Positions 1 through 61,655 of a stretch of DNA of 64,000 nt are shown in pieces. Both the position numbers and the translations under genes were made by a program. The stretch's first letter is position 1. Every line of letters starts with the position of its first letter. Source of the stretch: a virus (Duplodnaviria > Caudoviricetes); the IMG/VR virus record IMGVR_UViG_2974532474_000001, positions 4,763-68,762 of that record; one strand, written 5' to 3'. The notes below the pieces were generated by a model. It had not been told where the DNA came from. It worked only from the letters and a program-made list of their open reading frames with translations, and did not search any database.

Positions 1-1454
1 GGCAGCGGATCACGGGCAAGCTGCAGACCGTACTCACGCAGCCGGCCAACCTATTCCGGGACGCGATCCCGCGCGAGGAAATCACCAAAGAGGTGGACAA
101 AATCCCGTTGGATGGGTCCGTCGATATGGCCAAACAGGCTGTTCACAGTGCCCACGGGCTTGGCAGGAATGAAGCGGCCGCAGACCTCAACCCGTCTGCG
201 ATCTACGCGAGCGAAATCATGGACGGCAACACTTGCCGCGCGTGCGCTGACATTGATAGCCACAAATACCCGGACCTTGAGACCGCCATGGCTGATTACC
301 CAAACGGTGGTTATGACGGCTGCGAGGGTGGGCTGCGTTGCCGCGGCACGCTGGTGTTCATGTATGACGACCCGGTTATTCCCCGGGACGATCCCAACCC
401 CGAACCGCTGCCCCCGATCCCCCCGGAACCGACCCCGGCGCCGGAACCGGAAAAGCCCAAGACGCCCCGCAAGCGCAAGCCAAAGGTGACCCCGGCCCCG
501 GTTGAGGATCCCAAACCGAAGACCAGGAAAGAGGCGTTGGCCAAGGAACGCGCTGAACAGGAACCGGAAACGCCCGGGCTGCCGCCCAAGCCGACCGGCA
601 CGCCGCCGCCCCGCAAAAAGGGCCAATCCCAGCGGTACACCGACATTGACCAACTGCCCATTGACCATGGCAAGGTCACGGACACCCCGGGGCTGGTGGC
701 GAAGTACACCAACCCGGGCCATGACAAGGTGTATGGCACCAAGTTCTATAACAACAACTGCTCAAGCGTGGTTCAGGCTTACGAGTTCCAGCGCCGTGGA
801 TACGACGTAAAAGCCGCCCCGGTTGCTGACGGTAAGGGCCGCTATGACACCGAGTATGTGAGCCAGTGGTGGAAGGACACCAAGGGCAACCCGGCGCTCA
901 TGGAGTACGCCGCTTTGCTGCCGGACGTACCCGGGCGCATGAATAGGCACTTGCGCACCGTGGCGAAACTGGAACAGTGGGCGGACCCGTTCCCGGACGG
1001 CGCGCGTGGCTTTGTGGCGCTCCACTGGACCCAAGGTGGCGGTCACGTATTCAACTGGGAAAAGGTGGGCGGAAAGCTCACATGGCTGGAAGGCCAAACG
1101 GGCGATTGGGACGCCGCGCGCCACTTCACCCCGGGCATGTTCAAGCCGGATTCAGTGCGCATCGTCCGAATTGACGACAAAGTGCCCACCCCGCTGGCCA
1201 TGCAAGCCCTGGAAACCCGGCCACCAGAACTTGAACAGGAAGTAGCGGAAAAGGGCATAAATGGCGCTGGCGGGTTGTCCAGTGCGGACAAGAAACTGCG
1301 GTCAGTGTGGCGCATGCGCACCGGCCCCAACGGCATTGAATACGTCCCCCCGGCCTACCGCAAGAACAAATCCAATAGGTGGGAAGCGATCCCGGAACAC
1401 GAGCGCGCCAAGATGCTTGAGGATTTCAAGAAAAACGGGAACCGGCCCACCTAA
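1..1454 (+). CDS. MuF-like minor head protein fused to a C-terminal papain-fold toxin domain (Tox-PL type); 5' truncated by the window
   Basis: Frame is open from base 3. MuF-type Cys motif (MDGNTCRAC...GCEGGLRCRGTL), Pro/Lys linker, then NNCSSVVQAYEFQRRGY...GGGHVFNW...LEGQTG with a papain-like Cys/His arrangement. Confidence 0.75.
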   Translation, partial: QRITGKLQTVLTQPANLFRDAIPREEITKEVDKIPLDGSVDMAKQAVHSAHGLGRNEAAADLNPSAIYASEIMDGNTCRACADIDSHKYPDLETAMADYPNGGYDGCEGGLRCRGTLVFMYDDPVIPRDDPNPEPLPPIPPEPTPAPEPEKPKTPRKRKPKVTPAPVEDPKPKTRKEALAKERAEQEPETPGLPPKPTGTPPPRKKGQSQRYTDIDQLPIDHGKVTDTPGLVAKYTNPGHDKVYGTKFYNNNCSSVVQAYEFQRRGYDVKAAPVADGKGRYDTEYVSQWWKDTKGNPALMEYAALLPDVPGRMNRHLRTVAKLEQWADPFPDGARGFVALHWTQGGGHVFNWEKVGGKLTWLEGQTGDWDAARHFTPGMFKPDSVRIVRIDDKVPTPLAMQALETRPPELEQEVAEKGINGAGGLSSADKKLRSVWRMRTGPNGIEYVPPAYRKNKSNRWEAIPEHERAKMLEDFKKNGNRPT

Positions 1455-1485
1455 AACAGGCACGAACGGACGGACTATTAGAACA
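1454..1485 (+). promoter_or_regulatory. Class M promoter (AAACAGGCACG-N8-GACTAT), leaderless, for the immunity gene
   Basis: Motif C at 1457, ATG 28 nt later; same geometry as 10 other copies. Confidence 0.75.
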
Positions 1486-1811
1486 TGGCACAACTGACAT
1501 TTGAGGAAGCCCGGGCAGCCGTCCGAGCTCAAAACCAGCCCATTTGGGAAGACAACGACATACCCGGCGAATACATGGTCGCGGACTACGGGTGGGAGAA
1601 CGACGAAAGCTATCTACTCGTTGAGGGCGCGCGCGAGTATCTGGAAGACGGCGAAGACGAATTTGTGTTGCAGGACGCCCCGGCTGTGTTCGTGGACAAG
1701 GAAACCGGCACCGTGGTGCTGGCTGAGTTCCTGGCTGTCTTCGAGGTCATAGCGTCCATGACCCCGGTTCCCGGCCACGAGCCGCCCACGGACCCTGACG
1801 ACGACGAATAA
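1485..1811 (+). CDS. Putative immunity protein (Imm35/YrhB-like)
   Basis: Small acidic protein directly after the toxin; LTFEEAR...YGW...REYLEDG...APAVFVDKETG pattern recalls Imm35. Confidence 0.65.
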   Translation: MAQLTFEEARAAVRAQNQPIWEDNDIPGEYMVADYGWENDESYLLVEGAREYLEDGEDEFVLQDAPAVFVDKETGTVVLAEFLAVFEVIASMTPVPGHEPPTDPDDDE

Positions 1812-1824
1812 GCCGCACCCCAAA

Positions 1825-1861
1825 CGCCCCACAGCCGACCAAGGCTGTGGGGCGCTTTTTT
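1825..1861 (+). terminator. Rho-independent terminator
   Basis: CGCCCCACAGCC-GACCAA-GGCTGTGGGGCG followed by TTTTTT. Confidence 0.9.
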
Positions 1862-1873
1862 GTGACACCTCAG

Positions 1874-1915
1874 CCGTCCCACAACCGTGGTCACGCCGTG
1901 GGCATTATCAGGGCA
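1874..1915 (+). promoter_or_regulatory. Class L (late) promoter CCGTCCCACA...CATTAT
   Basis: Motif at -41, NANNNT at -12..-7, A at +1. Confidence 0.7.
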
Positions 1916-1954: not shown

Positions 1955-2176
1955 ATGCCGGTCAAACGCGGTAAAGATGGACGATTTGCACCCAACGGCG
2001 GACGCGTCCGCGATAAGGGCAAGGGCAAGGGCAAGAAAAAGCCCATCAGTAAGTCCGGGTTTGACCGCTGGATGGGTGCCAAAAAGCGCACTGAGGCCAA
2101 GAAATCCGCCGCCGCCGAGGCCAGCTTCAATCGTTGGGCAGACGCCAAAGACCGCGTAGCCAAAAAGAAAAAGTAA
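1955..2176 (+). CDS. Small Lys/Arg-rich protein 1 (N-term MPVKRGKDGRF)
   Basis: GAGG RBS; 73 aa, strongly basic. Confidence 0.8.
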   Translation: MPVKRGKDGRFAPNGGRVRDKGKGKGKKKPISKSGFDRWMGAKKRTEAKKSAAAEASFNRWADAKDRVAKKKK

Positions 2177-2188
2177 GGAACAAAGAAC

Positions 2189-2653
2189 ATGCCAGTTAGG
2201 CGAGATTCAAACGGGCGGTTCGCCGGCGGAAGCGGCGGAAGTTCTAAGCGAGCTTCCAAGGCGTCAAAGCGTATGGGCGCCGCCAAGCCAGTCACCCACA
2301 ACGACCGCATGCGCGCCAACCTGACGCCCACCAAAGCCACGGGCAAGGGGCGTGTTGGGCAGACCGCAAGCAAGACCGTTCGGGCTGCTGGTGTGGCGAA
2401 CAAGGCGAAAGCGACCAAGTACAACCGCCAGGACCGTGACGTCGCTGGTGCCAAGGCATTCAACATGACCAAGGCGCCGGGGCTGGCTGGGCAGAAGGCC
2501 AAGAAAAACAGCCTGACCCGCAACACGGACAAGATCAAGGGCGGTTTGAAGCGAGCCGCCGCGGTCAACGCGCAGATGGGCGAAAAGGCCGAAATGGTCA
2601 AAGCCATTGCGGGAGTCCGCAAGGACAAGCGCAAGAAATACGGAAAGCGATAG
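2189..2653 (+). CDS. Lys/Arg-rich protein 2 (N-term MPVRRDSNGRF)
   Basis: 154 aa, strongly basic, tandem arrangement. Confidence 0.8.
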   Translation: MPVRRDSNGRFAGGSGGSSKRASKASKRMGAAKPVTHNDRMRANLTPTKATGKGRVGQTASKTVRAAGVANKAKATKYNRQDRDVAGAKAFNMTKAPGLAGQKAKKNSLTRNTDKIKGGLKRAAAVNAQMGEKAEMVKAIAGVRKDKRKKYGKR

Positions 2654-2661
2654 GTGACCTC

Positions 2662-3045
2662 ATGCCGGTAAAACGCGACGCTAACGGGCGGTTCACGACC
2701 AGCGGCGGCACCAAGGTGGGCAGCCGTTCGGCCAAGCTGGCCAAGGTCAAGGGCCACAAAAAGGCTGTGTTCGACAACAACACGGCCCGTAAGAACCTGA
2801 AACAGGTACGCCGGAAAGCCGAAATTGACGACGACCGGGCGTTCCGCAGGGGCGACAAAGAGGCCATGAAAAAGACCGAGAAGCACCTCGAAAGCTTCCG
2901 GCCCAAGGAATCCAAGCTGATCAAGGAACAAGTGAAGCTTGGGCAAAAGGGCAAGACCGGGCAGCGCAAGCTACTGCCGTTCAAGCCCGAAATTGCCAAC
3001 AAAAAGGCGCAAGTCAAAAAGCGCCGCGCGAAGGCGGGGAAGTAA
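2662..3045 (+). CDS. Lys/Arg-rich protein 3 (N-term MPVKRDANGRF)
   Basis: AGGTG RBS; 127 aa, strongly basic. Confidence 0.8.
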   Translation: MPVKRDANGRFTTSGGTKVGSRSAKLAKVKGHKKAVFDNNTARKNLKQVRRKAEIDDDRAFRRGDKEAMKKTEKHLESFRPKESKLIKEQVKLGQKGKTGQRKLLPFKPEIANKKAQVKKRRAKAGK

Positions 3046-3047
3046 CC

Positions 3048-4496
3048 ATGACTGTGAAGTTCAAAACCGTTGAGGGCGTGCCCTTGGTCAAAACAGGCAC
3101 ATGGAACGGTTCGACAGGTGCCCGGGCAATCGGCAAAGAGGACTTGGAAGCAATCGTGGAAGCCCACGAATCCAAGGTTCTTGACAAGGGTGTGCTAAAA
3201 AAGGGCCACCTTGACCCGCGCCATGAGAATCCCACGTGGGACGGTGAGCCGGCTTACGGTCAGGTGGACAATCTGCGCTTGTCCGAGGACGGCGAAACGC
3301 TGCTGGGTGACTACATCAACGTGCCGGAAGATTTGGCCGACTCGCTGCCGTCCGCGTATCCCAACAGGTCCGCAGAAATCGCGTGGGGCGTGAAGCTCAA
3401 GGACGCTGCCGGGAAGATCACCAAGGAATTCAAGGCCGCGCTTGCTGGTGTCGCTCTGCTGGGGCGCACCCCGCCGGCGGTGAAGGGCTTGGGTGGCCCC
3501 GTGTCTGCGTTCTCCGCTGGGCTGGAATACGAGAGCATCGGCGTGTTCACCATGGTGTCGCAGTTCTCGCTCCCGGGCGGTCTGACGGCCAACGCGCTGC
3601 GTGAGGCACTGTCTACGGCGATCACCGACGAATTCAAGGCCAAGCGCACGCTGGACAGCGAATATGGCGAGTGGCCGTGGATGGTGGACTACGACGACGA
3701 AAAGGCGTGGTTCCGTTCCAACGGCGGTGTGTTCCAGGTTGGTTACACCGCGTCTGACGACGGCGTGATCACTCTGAATGACGACGTTACCGAGGTAATC
3801 GAAAAACGCACTTACGTTCCGGTTTCCGACACGGCCCCCGTCCCACAAACAATGCTTTCCGAAAAGCAAGCTAACGACGTACAGGGCGCCGCAAGCGCCA
3901 ACGAGAAAGCTACTAGGGAGGAATCCTCCATGTCCGAGTACCTTAAGAAGCTCCGGGACAAGCTGGGCTTGCCTGACACGGCCACGGAGGAAGAAATCCT
4001 TACCGCTGCCGCCGAGGCCGTCCCCGCACCCGCAGCCGACGACAAAGCACCTGCTGCCGCCCCCGCCGCTGCCCCCGCAGCAACGACCGAGGTTCAGGAA
4101 CAGACCAACAACAGCGCCGGCAAGCACGCCGCCCCCGCTGCTGGCGGCGGCGCCCCGGAAACCATTCAGGTTTCCAAGGCCATGTTCTCTGAGCTCATGG
4201 CCACCAGCCAGTCCAACGCCGCCAAGCTTGAAACCTACGAACAGGACAAGCACAAGGCGCACATTGAGGGCTTGGTTTCCAAGTTCTCTGCCGCTGGCAA
4301 GATTCACCCCAGCGAGGTGGCGTTCTTCACCAACGCGCTGGCCAAGGATGAAGCCGAGACCGTCGCGCACCTTGAGTCGCGGGTCGGCATCCCCGTTTCT
4401 CCGATTGGTTCCTCGACCGCCGACACCGTGGCTTTCAGCGAAAGCGACAACCTGGACCCGGCGTTCGCATACTTCAACCTGGAAGGTGGCAACTAA
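3048..4496 (+). CDS. Capsid maturation protease-scaffold fusion (Mu gpI-like)
   Basis: LKKGH, SAYPNRSAE and ALLGRTPPAVKGL motifs; Ala-rich/helical C-terminal half; lies just before capsid genes. Confidence 0.8.
   Translation: MTVKFKTVEGVPLVKTGTWNGSTGARAIGKEDLEAIVEAHESKVLDKGVLKKGHLDPRHENPTWDGEPAYGQVDNLRLSEDGETLLGDYINVPEDLADSLPSAYPNRSAEIAWGVKLKDAAGKITKEFKAALAGVALLGRTPPAVKGLGGPVSAFSAGLEYESIGVFTMVSQFSLPGGLTANALREALSTAITDEFKAKRTLDSEYGEWPWMVDYDDEKAWFRSNGGVFQVGYTASDDGVITLNDDVTEVIEKRTYVPVSDTAPVPQTMLSEKQANDVQGAASANEKATREESSMSEYLKKLRDKLGLPDTATEEEILTAAAEAVPAPAADDKAPAAAPAAAPAATTEVQEQTNNSAGKHAAPAAGGGAPETIQVSKAMFSELMATSQSNAAKLETYEQDKHKAHIEGLVSKFSAAGKIHPSEVAFFTNALAKDEAETVAHLESRVGIPVSPIGSSTADTVAFSESDNLDPAFAYFNLEGGN
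3838..3879 (+). promoter_or_regulatory. Internal class L promoter within the protease gene
   Basis: CCGTCCCACA at 3838; CAAGCT at 3867-3872; G at +1. Confidence 0.6.
3930..4496 (+). CDS. Nested in-frame scaffolding protein
   Basis: Strong AGGGAGG RBS before in-frame ATG 3930 (MSEYLKKLRDKLG). Confidence 0.7.
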   Translation: MSEYLKKLRDKLGLPDTATEEEILTAAAEAVPAPAADDKAPAAAPAAAPAATTEVQEQTNNSAGKHAAPAAGGGAPETIQVSKAMFSELMATSQSNAAKLETYEQDKHKAHIEGLVSKFSAAGKIHPSEVAFFTNALAKDEAETVAHLESRVGIPVSPIGSSTADTVAFSESDNLDPAFAYFNLEGGN

Positions 4497-5806: not shown

Positions 5807-6220
5807 ATGACCACCGCAGCACAGAAGCGCCGCAGCGCGTCCGACGCGCTCAAGGGAACCGCTACCCCGGCAGAGGAAACCCTGCCGCTGACCCCGGAAA
5901 CGGGCGAGGAAACCAAGAGCGAGGAAACCCCCGCCGCTGGTGACAAGCCCGACGCAACCGAGGCTAAAACCGACGCTGACGCCAAGGTTGATACCCCGGA
6001 CGCCGACCCGGCAGAGGGTGACGCCGCTGACGCGGACGCAGAAGACGACGACTACGACGAGGAAGACGAACTGGTTGAAGCCGTTGTGCTGTTCGACCTG
6101 TTCAACTACTTTGACGAGTCCGGCGCCCACTGCTCTGCGCTCAAGGGCAATACGGTGCACGTTGACCACGAGACCGCCGCGCGAGGCGTGAAGCTCCGCG
6201 CGCTCAAGGTCAAGGGCTAA
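5807..6220 (+). CDS. Acidic hypothetical protein, head region
   Basis: Asp/Glu-rich ORF packed after MCP. Confidence 0.7.
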   Translation: MTTAAQKRRSASDALKGTATPAEETLPLTPETGEETKSEETPAAGDKPDATEAKTDADAKVDTPDADPAEGDAADADAEDDDYDEEDELVEAVVLFDLFNYFDESGAHCSALKGNTVHVDHETAARGVKLRALKVKG

Positions 6221-6240
6221 GCCCCGAAAGGCTAAACACC

Positions 6241-6744
6241 ATGGCTGAGGCCACAACGTGGGGTGTCAGCGTCGATGATGTATCGGCGCTGGCCCCCCAT
6301 ATTGTTATTACCAACTCCGACGCACCGCCCACGGGCGGAACCCCGGATCCCTACAACGCCACCACGGTTCGGAAGCTCACGAATCAACAGGTGCAAAAGT
6401 TCATCAACGACGTGACCGCAATGGTGGACATGCGGCTGCATGAGCGTGTCAGGATCACCGACGAGGTGTTCAACGCCAAGATTGCCGCCGCCGCCAAGGA
6501 CATTGTGGCCAACGGTGCTGGTTCCTACTTGGTGGCTGCCGCGTTCCCCATGAAAGCTGGCCCCAACGAGAACACCAGCTACGCCGCGGAACTGTGGAAC
6601 CGCTACAAGTACGGGCTGGAAGAACTCGAAAAAGCCATTGCTGACTTCATCAAGGATGGCGAGGGAGTCACCCCCATTGCCCGGGCTTCGAGCATTGCGG
6701 CGTTCTTCCCGCCTGTTCGCATCCGGGACGACATGAGGTTTTAG
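6241..6744 (+). CDS. Head-to-tail adaptor
   Basis: Helical 167 aa protein; synteny. Confidence 0.6.
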   Translation: MAEATTWGVSVDDVSALAPHIVITNSDAPPTGGTPDPYNATTVRKLTNQQVQKFINDVTAMVDMRLHERVRITDEVFNAKIAAAAKDIVANGAGSYLVAAAFPMKAGPNENTSYAAELWNRYKYGLEELEKAIADFIKDGEGVTPIARASSIAAFFPPVRIRDDMRF

Positions 6745-7218: not shown

Positions 7219-7835
7219 TGCTTGGTGCCGAGGGTGTTTCCCGTGCGCTGGTGTATCGGCTGCTAGAACGAGTCCCGGCCAAGCTGGCGGAAATCCGGGC
7301 GCGGCTTGGGGTGGACGCTACCGAGCTACCGGAACTTGCCGCGATCTACCCCCACGAAATCAGCATCCGGGCTATCAATGCGTACCCGTGCGCTTCCGTG
7401 GTGGCCTACCAGACCACGGGCCGGGTGGGTAACAGGCAATTTGAGTCTGACAGCGGCTATGACGAGTATTCATTCAAGTACAAAATGCGCATTTTTCTGT
7501 GGGGCATGTCCAACGATCATGTGGCCACGGACTTGCTGCGCAAGCGGCTGGCGCTGGCCGTCCGGGAGGTGCTGCTGAATGACAAAATTTTCTACAACGA
7601 GAACAGCCAGTATGCAGACCTTGACCCTGACACCCTCTTGGAGTCCTACAGCGACGTGGGCAGCTTGGCGGAAAACCAGTTCCTTGGCGGGGTTTACCTT
7701 GAGCTTGAGGTTTCAAGCCAAGAAATCTTGGTTGCGTTCCAGGGTGTTCCCAACCCGGACCCGGCAACGGTGATACCGGACTTTAGCGCCGTGGGCGAGG
7801 GCGACACGCACCCCGTCCCCCAACCGGAACCCTAG
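7218..7835 (+). CDS. Putative tail terminator
   Basis: Position before sheath; beta-rich composition. Confidence 0.55.
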   Translation: MLGAEGVSRALVYRLLERVPAKLAEIRARLGVDATELPELAAIYPHEISIRAINAYPCASVVAYQTTGRVGNRQFESDSGYDEYSFKYKMRIFLWGMSNDHVATDLLRKRLALAVREVLLNDKIFYNENSQYADLDPDTLLESYSDVGSLAENQFLGGVYLELEVSSQEILVAFQGVPNPDPATVIPDFSAVGEGDTHPVPQPEP

Positions 7836-37362: not shown

Positions 37363-37394
37363 AAACAGGCACGCGCCCCCATACGCTGGAAATA
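37363..37394 (+). promoter_or_regulatory. Class M promoter (TACGCT)
   Basis: AAACAGGCACG-N8-TACGCT. Confidence 0.8.
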
Positions 37395-47896: not shown

Positions 47897-48177
47897 AGGC
47901 CAAGCGCGAGCCGCGCACGTTCGATTTCCGCGAGACGTACTGGGGCCACAATTTCAGCGTGCATGGTGTCCCCACCAAGAAAAACCCGGGCAAGTGGAAG
48001 CGTGGCAAGTTCACTGGCTGGACCATATCCACGCCACGGCCACAGCCCGGTGACCGCATGATTTGGCAGACCAAGCTAGGGCACATAGTCGCCAAAATCA
48101 CCCATGTGGACCCCTACCGGGATCCCCAAGACATGGCCAAGGTCAAAGGCCGCATCCTGGAACGCGTCCGCGAGTAA
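47893..48177 (+). CDS. Hypothetical basic protein
   Basis: ATGA overlap. Confidence 0.7.
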   Translation: MKAKREPRTFDFRETYWGHNFSVHGVPTKKNPGKWKRGKFTGWTISTPRPQPGDRMIWQTKLGHIVAKITHVDPYRDPQDMAKVKGRILERVRE

Positions 48178-48181
48178 CCGA

Positions 48182-48208
48182 AAGCCCCCGTCATTTCGGC
48201 GGGGGCTT
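48182..48208. terminator. Probable terminator hairpin
   Basis: AAGCCCCCGTC...GCGGGGGCTT; weak U-tract on plus strand. Confidence 0.6.
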
Positions 48209-48221
48209 CCGCTTTACACAA

Positions 48222-48253
48222 AAACAGGCACGCGCGCTGAAAGACTGAACTTA
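48222..48253 (+). promoter_or_regulatory. Class M promoter, leaderless
   Basis: AAGACT -10; ATG at +28. Confidence 0.8.
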
Positions 48254-60078: not shown

Positions 60079-60094
60079 AACAAGCGAGACCGAG

Positions 60095-60121
60095 AAAGCC
60101 ACCCTACGGGGTGGCTTTTTT
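60095..60121 (+). terminator. Terminator
   Basis: AAAGCCACCC-TACG-GGGTGGCTTTTTT. Confidence 0.9.
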
Positions 60122-60134
60122 CGTGCCCGGGCAA

Positions 60135-60166
60135 AAACAAGCACGCCCCAAGAGAGACTGAGGATA
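60135..60166 (+). promoter_or_regulatory. Class M promoter variant (AAACAAGCACG), leaderless
   Basis: GAGACT -10; ATG at +28. Confidence 0.75.
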
Positions 60167-61533: not shown

Positions 61534-61580
61534 CGGCGTGTTAATCTGAGTTCCTTGCTGCGTCGGGTTGCAGGGGTCAT

Positions 61581-61613
61581 GGAAAGCCCGGGGATTTTGT
61601 CCCCGGGCTTTCC
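61581..61613. terminator. Hairpin, probable terminator
   Basis: GGAAAGCCCGGGGA-TTTTG-TCCCCGGGCTTTCC. Confidence 0.8.
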
Positions 61614-61622
61614 TTTGCCCAA

Positions 61623-61655
61623 AAACAGGCACGCTCGCGCATAGCGTGGGTTTTA
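61623..61655 (+). promoter_or_regulatory. Class M promoter, leaderless
   Basis: TAGCGT -10; ATG at +29. Confidence 0.75.

Follow-up and report, generated by a model that had tools for sequence, protein, structure and literature searches.

A promoter-like spacer between a MuF-borne Tox-PL1 domain and its Imm35-like partner gene in a lytic Arthrobacter myovirus

Introduction

Fusions of MuF head proteins with Tox-PL1 domains, accompanied by Imm35 immunity genes, were described in 2012 from bacterial genomes, where they lie in prophage remnants; Imm35 pairs specifically with Tox-PL1, a domain with the signature residues NC, H, and D (Zhang et al. 2012; PMC3482391). Jamet et al. (2017) detected MuF toxins in no virulent phage and suggested that they serve lysogen competition (PMC5576092). 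Here, we examine such a gene pair in a 64,000-nucleotide stretch of viral DNA (hereafter 'the window'), which corresponds to bases 4763–68762 of the 68.8-kb virus record IMGVR_UViG_2974532474_000001, a genome that is 98% complete. At the left end of the window, the gene for a MuF-type head protein with a papain-fold domain is followed by a gene for a small acidic protein, and the spacer between the two carries the promoter-like motif AAACAGGCACG. An earlier reading of the sequence (the original prediction) had proposed that the acidic protein is an immunity protein encoded by a monocistronic unit, expressed before late toxin synthesis or to neutralize toxin injected with the DNA.

The window is 88–90% identical at the DNA level to Arthrobacter myoviruses of cluster AR (Klausavirus), e.g. 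Conboy, PrincessTrina, and ArV1, and its source phage can be assigned to this cluster. Tyrosine integrase, serine recombinase/resolvase, and lysogeny-module genes were not found in the 98%-complete genome, and neither a repressor nor an integrase is annotated in the sister phages. The phage is thus lytic as far as its gene content tells, in agreement with the original prediction, and the lysogen-competition model (PMC5576092) cannot apply to it, as had also been foreseen.

Compared with the fusions of Zhang et al. (2012; PMC3482391), the locus has the same MuF plus Tox-PL1 architecture with NC/H/D residues and an Imm35-type gene immediately downstream, but it is found in a lytic myovirus rather than in prophage remnants, has a conserved tail behind the toxin domain, and contains a promoter-bearing spacer of 30 nucleotides (nt). 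It shares with the temperate MuF toxins (PMC5576092; Apk2, PMC12226406) the MuF N-domain, the variable C-terminal toxin, and the adjacent immunity gene, and with those of Jamet et al. (PMC5576092) the hypothesis of injection with the DNA; it differs from the temperate phages of that study in the absence of lysogeny genes. Lytic actinobacteriophages with a toxin domain on MuF are also on record: lytic Microbacterium phages encode fusions of MuF with a VIP2 ADP-ribosyltransferase, and those of cluster EC have an oriented 18-bp motif with 12 copies per genome; most of these lie in the non-structural region, but the motif is also found ahead of a gene that has been inserted between those of MuF and the capsid protease (Jacobs-Sera et al. 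2020; PMC7302621). Both toxin type and motif differ from those described here, and no immunity function has been proposed for the cluster EC gene (PMC7302621), although its position behind the motif may parallel the present arrangement. The cluster AO Arthrobacter myoviruses (e.g. Brent and Jawnski) are likewise lytic, infect the same host, and have the same Tox-PL1 domain after the portal gene and a partner of the same immunity family. Their toxin and immunity genes, however, overlap by 4 nt or 1 nt or abut, and they lack both AAACAGGCACG and the C-terminal tail.

The Alt protein of T4, cited in PMC5576092, is an ADP-ribosyltransferase that is packaged in the capsid and injected with the DNA. 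The locus in the window shares with it the idea of a head-borne enzyme of a lytic phage acting on the new host cell, but Alt is not known to have a dedicated inhibitor gene and has a different capsid-targeting signal.

Novelty is limited, since MuF-toxin fusions in lytic actinobacteriophages are on record and sister phages are already annotated as having a toxin-immunity pair. The promoter-bearing spacer is a lineage-specific variant of this known pair, and the new evidence is mainly comparative.

The predicted toxin-immunity gene pair

The toxin gene occupies positions 3–1454 of the window (+ strand), which encode the C-terminal 483 amino acids of a 659-amino-acid protein; the whole gene (L015:4237–6216) begins 6 nt past the portal gene (portal end G000:4231, toxin-gene start G000:4237). 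Its product has no direct match to Pfam Phage_Mu_F (PF04233) at E ≤ 1. We assign its N-terminal part to a divergent MuF domain because two of the twenty-seven full-length alignable relatives match Phage_Mu_F (best E = 4.9e-9), because a CxxC…RCRGTLV motif is present, and because the gene follows that of the portal. The end of this domain lies at 3–362 (+ strand; PHROG 595, E = 5e-64). Sister phages annotate the protein as 'MuF-like minor capsid protein', and ArV1 as 'putative structural protein'.

A Pro/Lys-rich linker, as read from the translation (366–629, + strand), is of variable length and gap-rich in the alignment of the twenty-seven relatives; it connects the MuF domain to a Tox-PL1/Gln_amidase papain-fold cysteine hydrolase domain (630–1187, + strand). 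The latter is recognized by its Pfam match, its conserved residues, and its AlphaFold2 fold. Gln_amidase (PF15644, 'Papain fold toxin 1') is the sole Pfam domain of the head protein; it covers residues 251–367 of the window protein (E = 9e-9; 36.8 bits against a cut-off of 24.1) and is matched by all twenty-seven full-length relatives as well. The motifs NNC, GGGHVFNW, and EGQTG are present, with the codons of the catalytic Cys429 at 759–761, His524 at 1044–1046, Glu539 at 1089–1091, and Gln541 at 1095–1097. All 44 viral homologues, down to ~20% identity, have N428-C429, H524, and Q541, and 43 of them have D or E at position 539 (E in the window protein); N428-C429/H524/E539 agree with the published Tox-PL1 NC/H/D signature.

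In the AlphaFold2 model, the domain forms a block with a predicted local distance difference test score (pLDDT) of ~88–98. Its best structural matches and closest solved folds are SpvD (PDB 5lq7; Z 10.0, 157 residues aligned) and OspI (PDB 3w30; Z 8.8), which have a triad of the Cys-His-Asp type. OspI is a glutamine deamidase. Both, however, are only 10–12% identical in sequence and are type III effectors by which enteric pathogens act on eukaryotic proteins, and they are not informative on the substrate here. Next come C39 peptidases, staphopains, AvrPphB, and Josephin-type enzymes, and the top structural rows besides SpvD and OspI are all papain-type peptidases or hydrolases except YopQ (rank 3). 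The domain is a papain-fold Tox-PL1 domain with its catalytic residues intact. We take it to be a cysteine hydrolase of the deamidase or peptidase type and infer that it is toxic, as part of an explanation that as a whole we hold to be only a little likelier than its contrary.

A conserved tail of ~85 amino acids (…SAxKK…YRKNxxxRWExIP…; 1197–1451, + strand) follows the domain; it is shared by Klausavirus-like relatives, matches no family, and is predicted by AlphaFold2 as a small sheet plus helix (pLDDT 67–89). It is missing from cluster AO and more distant homologues, which keep the immunity gene, so that the pairing with the immunity gene tracks the Tox-PL1 domain and not the tail. Related MuF N-domains in other viral contigs end in an ADPrib_exo_Tox domain (E = 1e-23), in EndoU (E = 1.6e-5), or right after RCRGTLV, and this variety of C-terminal domains indicates that the wider family behaves as a polymorphic toxin family. 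A swapped-cassette reading was rejected for the sister phages, since all cluster AR phages share one toxin type.

The gene directly downstream (1485–1811, + strand) encodes a protein of 108 amino acids with an isoelectric point (pI) of 4.05 and 28 Asp plus Glu against 4 Lys plus Arg. It matches PHROG 3585, 'immunity protein' (E = 1e-40), RefSeq records of sister phages give the gene the same name, and the GenBank annotation of KBurrousTX reads 'Antitoxin, imm35 Domain Protein'. A profile search recovered 305 representatives of the family, of which 120 were scanned; 11 of these matched Imm35, weakly (best E = 2e-4), and nothing else. A family member lies directly downstream of a Tox-PL1 gene in 22 viral loci, and most of the remaining Tox-PL1 loci have an open reading frame of 67–97 amino acids that overlaps or abuts the toxin stop, with weak profile similarity and a K-x-T-G-x-V motif. 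The partner gene thus appears to belong to an Imm35-like family tied to Tox-PL1 genes. Its AlphaFold2 model (pLDDT 95) has a helix packed on an antiparallel sheet, of cystatin/PepSY type; W21 is shared by all close relatives, and most members of the family have the T of the K-x-T-G motif. Foldseek returned nothing significant for this model against the PDB, and VIA-align gave only Z 4–6 (YebF, YpeB PepSY domains, a designed cystatin fold, and Tai3/Tai4-type immunity proteins), which is a common arrangement and not homology. PADLOC had no match to the immunity protein, and NCBIfam has no model for it or for the head protein. One family member (P0042) has a tandem duplication, with two immunity domains in 194 amino acids.

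The acidic Imm35-like protein is probably the cognate inhibitor of the adjacent toxin domain, and we have high confidence in the identity of the pair. The original prediction had named a papain-fold toxin and a small acidic partner, with reference to MuF-toxin fusions and Tox-PL/Imm35 pairing in the literature. The literature is as it stated (Zhang et al. 2012; PMC3482391), the neighbouring gene is small, acidic, and Imm35-like, and the model has a papain fold with NC…H…(D/E)xQ residues in place. That the MuF gene ends in the NNC…GGGHVFNW…EGQTG domain is right with regard to the motifs, but the conserved tail that follows was overlooked.

Sequenced phage records with the Tox-PL1 domain number 140 and come from phages of Arthrobacter, Mycobacterium, Gordonia, and Microbacterium. 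Tox-PL1 matches also lie inside 'VIP2-like toxin' genes near the left end of 61 Mycobacterium phage genomes (H82–H95; Fameo, Echild, Orange, and others), the products of which may hold two enzyme domains. One relative, of 1135 amino acids (P0174), is a fusion with Pfam matches to portal-type PF06074, to PF21919, and to the Tox-PL1 domain.

A promoter-like motif at the junction

The motif AAACAGGCACG lies at 1454–1464 (+ strand). It begins with the A that also ends the TAA stop codon of the toxin gene (1452–1454), and it stands 20 nt before the ATG of the immunity gene. Eight nt after the motif, at 1473–1478 (+ strand), is the -10-like hexamer GACTAT (nAnnnT), which occupies positions -12 to -7 relative to the ATG. 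Allowing up to one mismatch, AAACAGGCACG has 13 matches in the window, all on the + strand, against 2.1 expected, and none of 100 shuffles reached 13. Ten copies are exact—that at 1454 and nine between 37363 and 62010—and a functional-looking variant is found at 60135. The ten copies other than that at the junction, with the common form AAACA(G/A)GCACG, start at 37363, 41378, 43337, 45825, 48222, 50057, 52538, 60135 (the variant), 61623, and 62010 (range 37363–62020, + strand). The one-mismatch hits at 2800 and 3091 were rejected as promoters, as they are intragenic and lack an nAnnnT hexamer or an ATG at the proper spacing.

An nAnnnT hexamer follows at 8 nt in all 11 copies. The distance from motif to ATG is exactly 20 nt in seven of the eleven and 21 nt in one; for the copies at 37363, 50057, and 62010, the ATG is 50–64 nt away, and the leader has a purine-rich stretch that resembles a Shine–Dalgarno (SD) sequence. 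The first genes after the ten other copies comprise two DNA methyltransferase genes, eight of no assigned function, and none for a structural protein; a helicase and a sliding clamp are encoded further downstream of motif copies, according to the map of a sister phage. PrincessTrina has the same ten-copy layout.

Three copies (48222, 60135, and 61623) stand directly after G+C-rich hairpins with T-runs (48170–48232, 60090–60145, and 61580–61633). These terminator-promoter modules were missed by a simple terminator scan because their T-runs are interrupted.

The geometry of the junction at 1454, like that of seven other copies, matches an actinobacterial leaderless promoter. With the hexamer at -12 to -7, the transcript is predicted to start on the A of the ATG at 1485 and hence to be leaderless. 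The spacer has no GGAGG-like ribosome-binding site 5–10 nt before this ATG, so that the leaderless transcript from the gene's own promoter would probably be the main translated form. Since the 11-mer is unlike a -35 element and the 98%-complete genome yielded no sigma factor, a phage-encoded activator is likely. We have fairly high confidence that AAACAGGCACG together with the hexamer constitutes a functional promoter.

Terminator and transcription unit

The portal-MuF-immunity unit is closed by an intrinsic terminator at 1825–1861 (+ strand), in which a T-run comes after a 12-bp stem (1825–1854) with 10 G-C pairs. The structure folds with an energy of -31.2 kcal/mol (z = -6.0), and the hairpin at 1825–1854 is kept in the sister phages through compensatory changes.

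Just behind it, at 1874–1883 (+ strand), is a motif of a second class, CCGTCCCACA, which is found before blocks of structural genes and is a candidate late promoter or activator site. Exact intergenic copies lie at 1874, 10111, and 18903, and at G000:2772 before the portal gene; those at 7813 and 25511 have one mismatch, and every copy is on the + strand. The motif, in the form CCGTCCC(A/C)CA, is often preceded by GACAC and also has an intragenic copy at 3838. It precedes the portal, head, sheath, tail-chaperone, tail, and baseplate gene blocks, and the copy at 1874 is a candidate mark of the restart of late transcription after the terminator. The order of the unit is thus late motif, portal, MuF-toxin, own promoter, immunity gene, terminator, late motif, and head genes.

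Comparison of toxin-immunity junctions

In the Klausavirus lineage, all seven loci have a spacer of 30–34 nt that contains the motif. The junctions of PrincessTrina, ArV1, DrYang, KBurrousTX, and Colucci retain the stop codon, 11-mer, and hexamer and a gap of exactly 30 nt; the remainder of the spacer and the flanking coding sequence diverge, the flanking proteins down to ~55–63% identity. Colucci has a G-to-A variant of the motif, as at 60135 in the window, and the hexamers at the sister junctions read GACGAT, GATGAT, GAAAAT, GACAAT, and GATCAT. A more distant metagenomic locus (L019) has a different stop codon, a 34-nt gap, and the motif 21 nt before the ATG.

AAACAGGCACG is absent from all fifteen other viral loci with the same gene pair, lytic cluster AO included. 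Nine of them have a 4-nt overlap, and the spacing in the rest is -1, 0, -16, or +11 nt, with one uncertain start call. As the motif is present in seven of seven Klausavirus-lineage loci and in none of the fifteen others, the promoter-like spacer is a derived feature of one lineage that has been kept there.

Proposed mechanism and alternative explanations

The MuF-toxin protein would probably be carried in the capsid and enter the cell along with the DNA, in the manner of MuF proteins. In most phages with the pair, the genes overlap by 4 nt, and toxin and inhibitor would be made together. In the Klausavirus lineage, the 30-nt spacer with its putative AAACAGGCACG/nAnnnT leaderless promoter separates the two genes, and the same promoter class would head DNA-methylase and other non-structural operons. 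With its own promoter and terminator, inhibitor synthesis would no longer depend on toxin synthesis: the inhibitor would accumulate with the early/middle genes, ahead of the late-made toxin fusion, and would also quench toxin brought in by the infecting genome. We regard a separately promoted inhibitor of a head-borne Tox-PL1 toxin, made before the toxin, as probable by a slight degree; for the expression of the immunity gene ahead of the toxin, we put the chances at about even.

Several points weigh against this account. The temporal class of the AAACAGGCACG promoters is deduced only from the genes that they precede. No terminator was found between the portal/MuF genes and the immunity gene, so that late read-through transcripts should carry the immunity gene as well; the gene would then have two possible sources of mRNA, its own promoter and late read-through, and the extra promoter may serve dosage rather than timing. 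The product of 1485–1811 has no match to Pfam Imm35 (PF15567). Modelling gives no support to binding: the pair was folded as a single chain by reading through the TAA and TAG stops (NCBI table 6), the two genes being in frame, and both domains were well folded, but the predicted template modelling score was only 0.58 and the fold gave no interface read-out. Finally, a tail separates the toxin domain from the C-terminus, and the domain has not been exchanged between sister phages; both are unusual in a competition toxin and in keeping with a conserved role in infection.

The dosage possibility can be put more fully: the motif would be a real promoter, the immunity gene would be the last, SD-less cistron of the late portal-MuF transcript, and the promoter would keep the inhibitor in excess. 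Read-through into the gene and the poor translation from a long late mRNA expected of an ATG with no GGAGG-like site 5–10 nt before it both suit this view. It has to reckon, however, with the fact that all other copies of the motif precede non-structural genes while the structural blocks use a different motif, and with the overlapping arrangement in the fifteen other loci, which evidently gives enough inhibitor without a promoter. We think this explanation possible but unlikely. A distinctly smaller chance is given to the motif not being a promoter at all. The 11-mer could be the site of a phage regulator or an element associated with translation starts, comparable to the start-associated sequences and stoperators of mycobacteriophages, and the late polycistronic mRNA would then be the only source of immunity-gene expression. 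Such a role would explain why the motif is asymmetric, is used in one orientation, and keeps a fixed distance to start codons that lack ribosome-binding sites, and it would accord with the absence of any likeness to a TTGACA -35 element and of a phage sigma factor. Yet the three copies at 50–64 nt from the ATG are not tied to a start codon, the nAnnnT hexamer is at the canonical -12 to -7, and the copies at 48222, 60135, and 61623 directly follow terminator hairpins, like restart promoters.

The remaining alternative concerns the enzyme itself. Rather than a toxin, the papain domain may be an enzyme of morphogenesis or entry, acting as a capsid protease, as a cell-wall amidase, or as a peptidase for self-processing or release; the acidic protein would then be a chaperone of assembly or an inhibitor resembling a pro-peptide. 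In cluster AO, homologues bear the annotation 'capsid maturation protease', some Tox-PL1 domains are releasing peptidases according to Zhang et al. (PMC3482391), and the cystatin/PepSY-like fold of the partner resembles protease pro-peptides; the conserved tail after the domain and the stable inheritance of the domain in lytic phages point the same way. Against this, the phage has a separate Mu gpI-like protease-scaffold gene (3048–4496), and AO phages without the tail keep both the domain and its partner. The effector hydrolases SpvD and OspI give the best fold matches, whereas Tae4 and Ssp1, both cell-wall amidases, reach only Z ~5.5, and behind related MuF N-domains the place of the papain domain is taken by ADP-ribosyltransferase or EndoU toxin domains. 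We consider a morphogenetic role improbable, about as much so as a motif without promoter function.

A separately promoted inhibitor thus remains the preferred account. The observations of the original prediction are confirmed: a motif that overlaps the toxin stop stands before the immunity gene at 1454–1464, with hexamer and ATG at a fixed spacing that is kept in the sisters; its ten other copies lie at 37–62 kb, before methylase and other non-structural genes; and the gene has its own terminator at 1825–1861, with a 12-bp stem of -31.2 kcal/mol (z = -6.0). The interpretation is partly supported. Of the proposed monocistronic unit, the promoter-like motif and the terminator stand; the isolation from upstream transcription does not, as no terminator precedes the gene and late read-through is to be expected.

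Immunity genes in the host family and significance

Among 301 genomes of the host family (Micrococcaceae), seven have a close homologue of the immunity gene (L083, L092–L097). No Tox-PL1 domain was found within 8 kb of these seven orphan genes or elsewhere in the same genomes; a PF15644 signal occurs in three of the 301 genomes, only one of them above the cut-off, and none of the three is an orphan carrier. The Paenarthrobacter orphan (L083; NZ_JBIVXN010000012.1, 6001–6306) is 63% identical to the immunity protein of the window and sits between genes for a Type IIG restriction enzyme (E = 1e-283) and the Uzume protein UzuA (E = 7e-87); it is also beside an Mrr-type nuclease gene and near that of a TraG conjugative coupling protein. 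Three other orphans have a permease or phosphotransferase gene on one side and a gene for a DUF222 or HNH protein on the other.

In this family, the toxin would thus be mainly a phage gene, and bacteria would hold antidotes without the toxin, although the sample is small and includes a single defence-island case. The pattern fits protection against a toxin that comes from outside, possibly with phage DNA. The Paenarthrobacter orphan, placed in a defence island, may be an anti-phage use of the immunity gene.

The published lysogen-competition model of MuF-borne toxins does not cover a phage without lysogeny. Lytic phages of one host (Arthrobacter sp. ATCC 21022) offer two natural versions of the pair, the overlapping one of cluster AO and the separately promoted antidote of cluster AR, and thereby an experimental handle. 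Should antidote made beforehand lower infection, the toxin would be an infection effector and the orphan immunity genes an anti-phage defence; should it have no effect, the pair would only protect the producing cell during assembly. A fuller version of the former outcome, which we offer as speculation and doubt more than we credit, is that the head-borne hydrolase acts briefly after injection and is then switched off by inhibitor from an early/middle promoter, while the same pool of inhibitor shields cell machinery during the assembly of toxin-loaded heads. This would amount to a protein-level pulse timer in a lytic phage, and bacterial orphan inhibitors could disarm the incoming effector.

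Other features of the head-gene region

The left end of the genome has the order terminase, portal, MuF-toxin, the small immunity gene, three small basic genes, protease-scaffold, decoration, and major capsid. The gene at 3048–4496 is annotated as scaffold; the N-terminus of its product matches head-maturation-protease families and its C-terminus matches Mu gpI, and with such a protease-scaffold fusion, a capsid-protease role for the papain domain is unnecessary.

The three consecutive small genes at 1955–3045, between the terminator and the protease-scaffold gene, encode very basic products (pI 11.1–11.7). All three proteins start with MPV(K/R)R(G/D)xxGRF, are otherwise dissimilar, and are candidates for internal proteins targeted to the capsid. 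A basic motif in the tail of the MuF-toxin, YRKNKSNRW, is loosely like that of these proteins.

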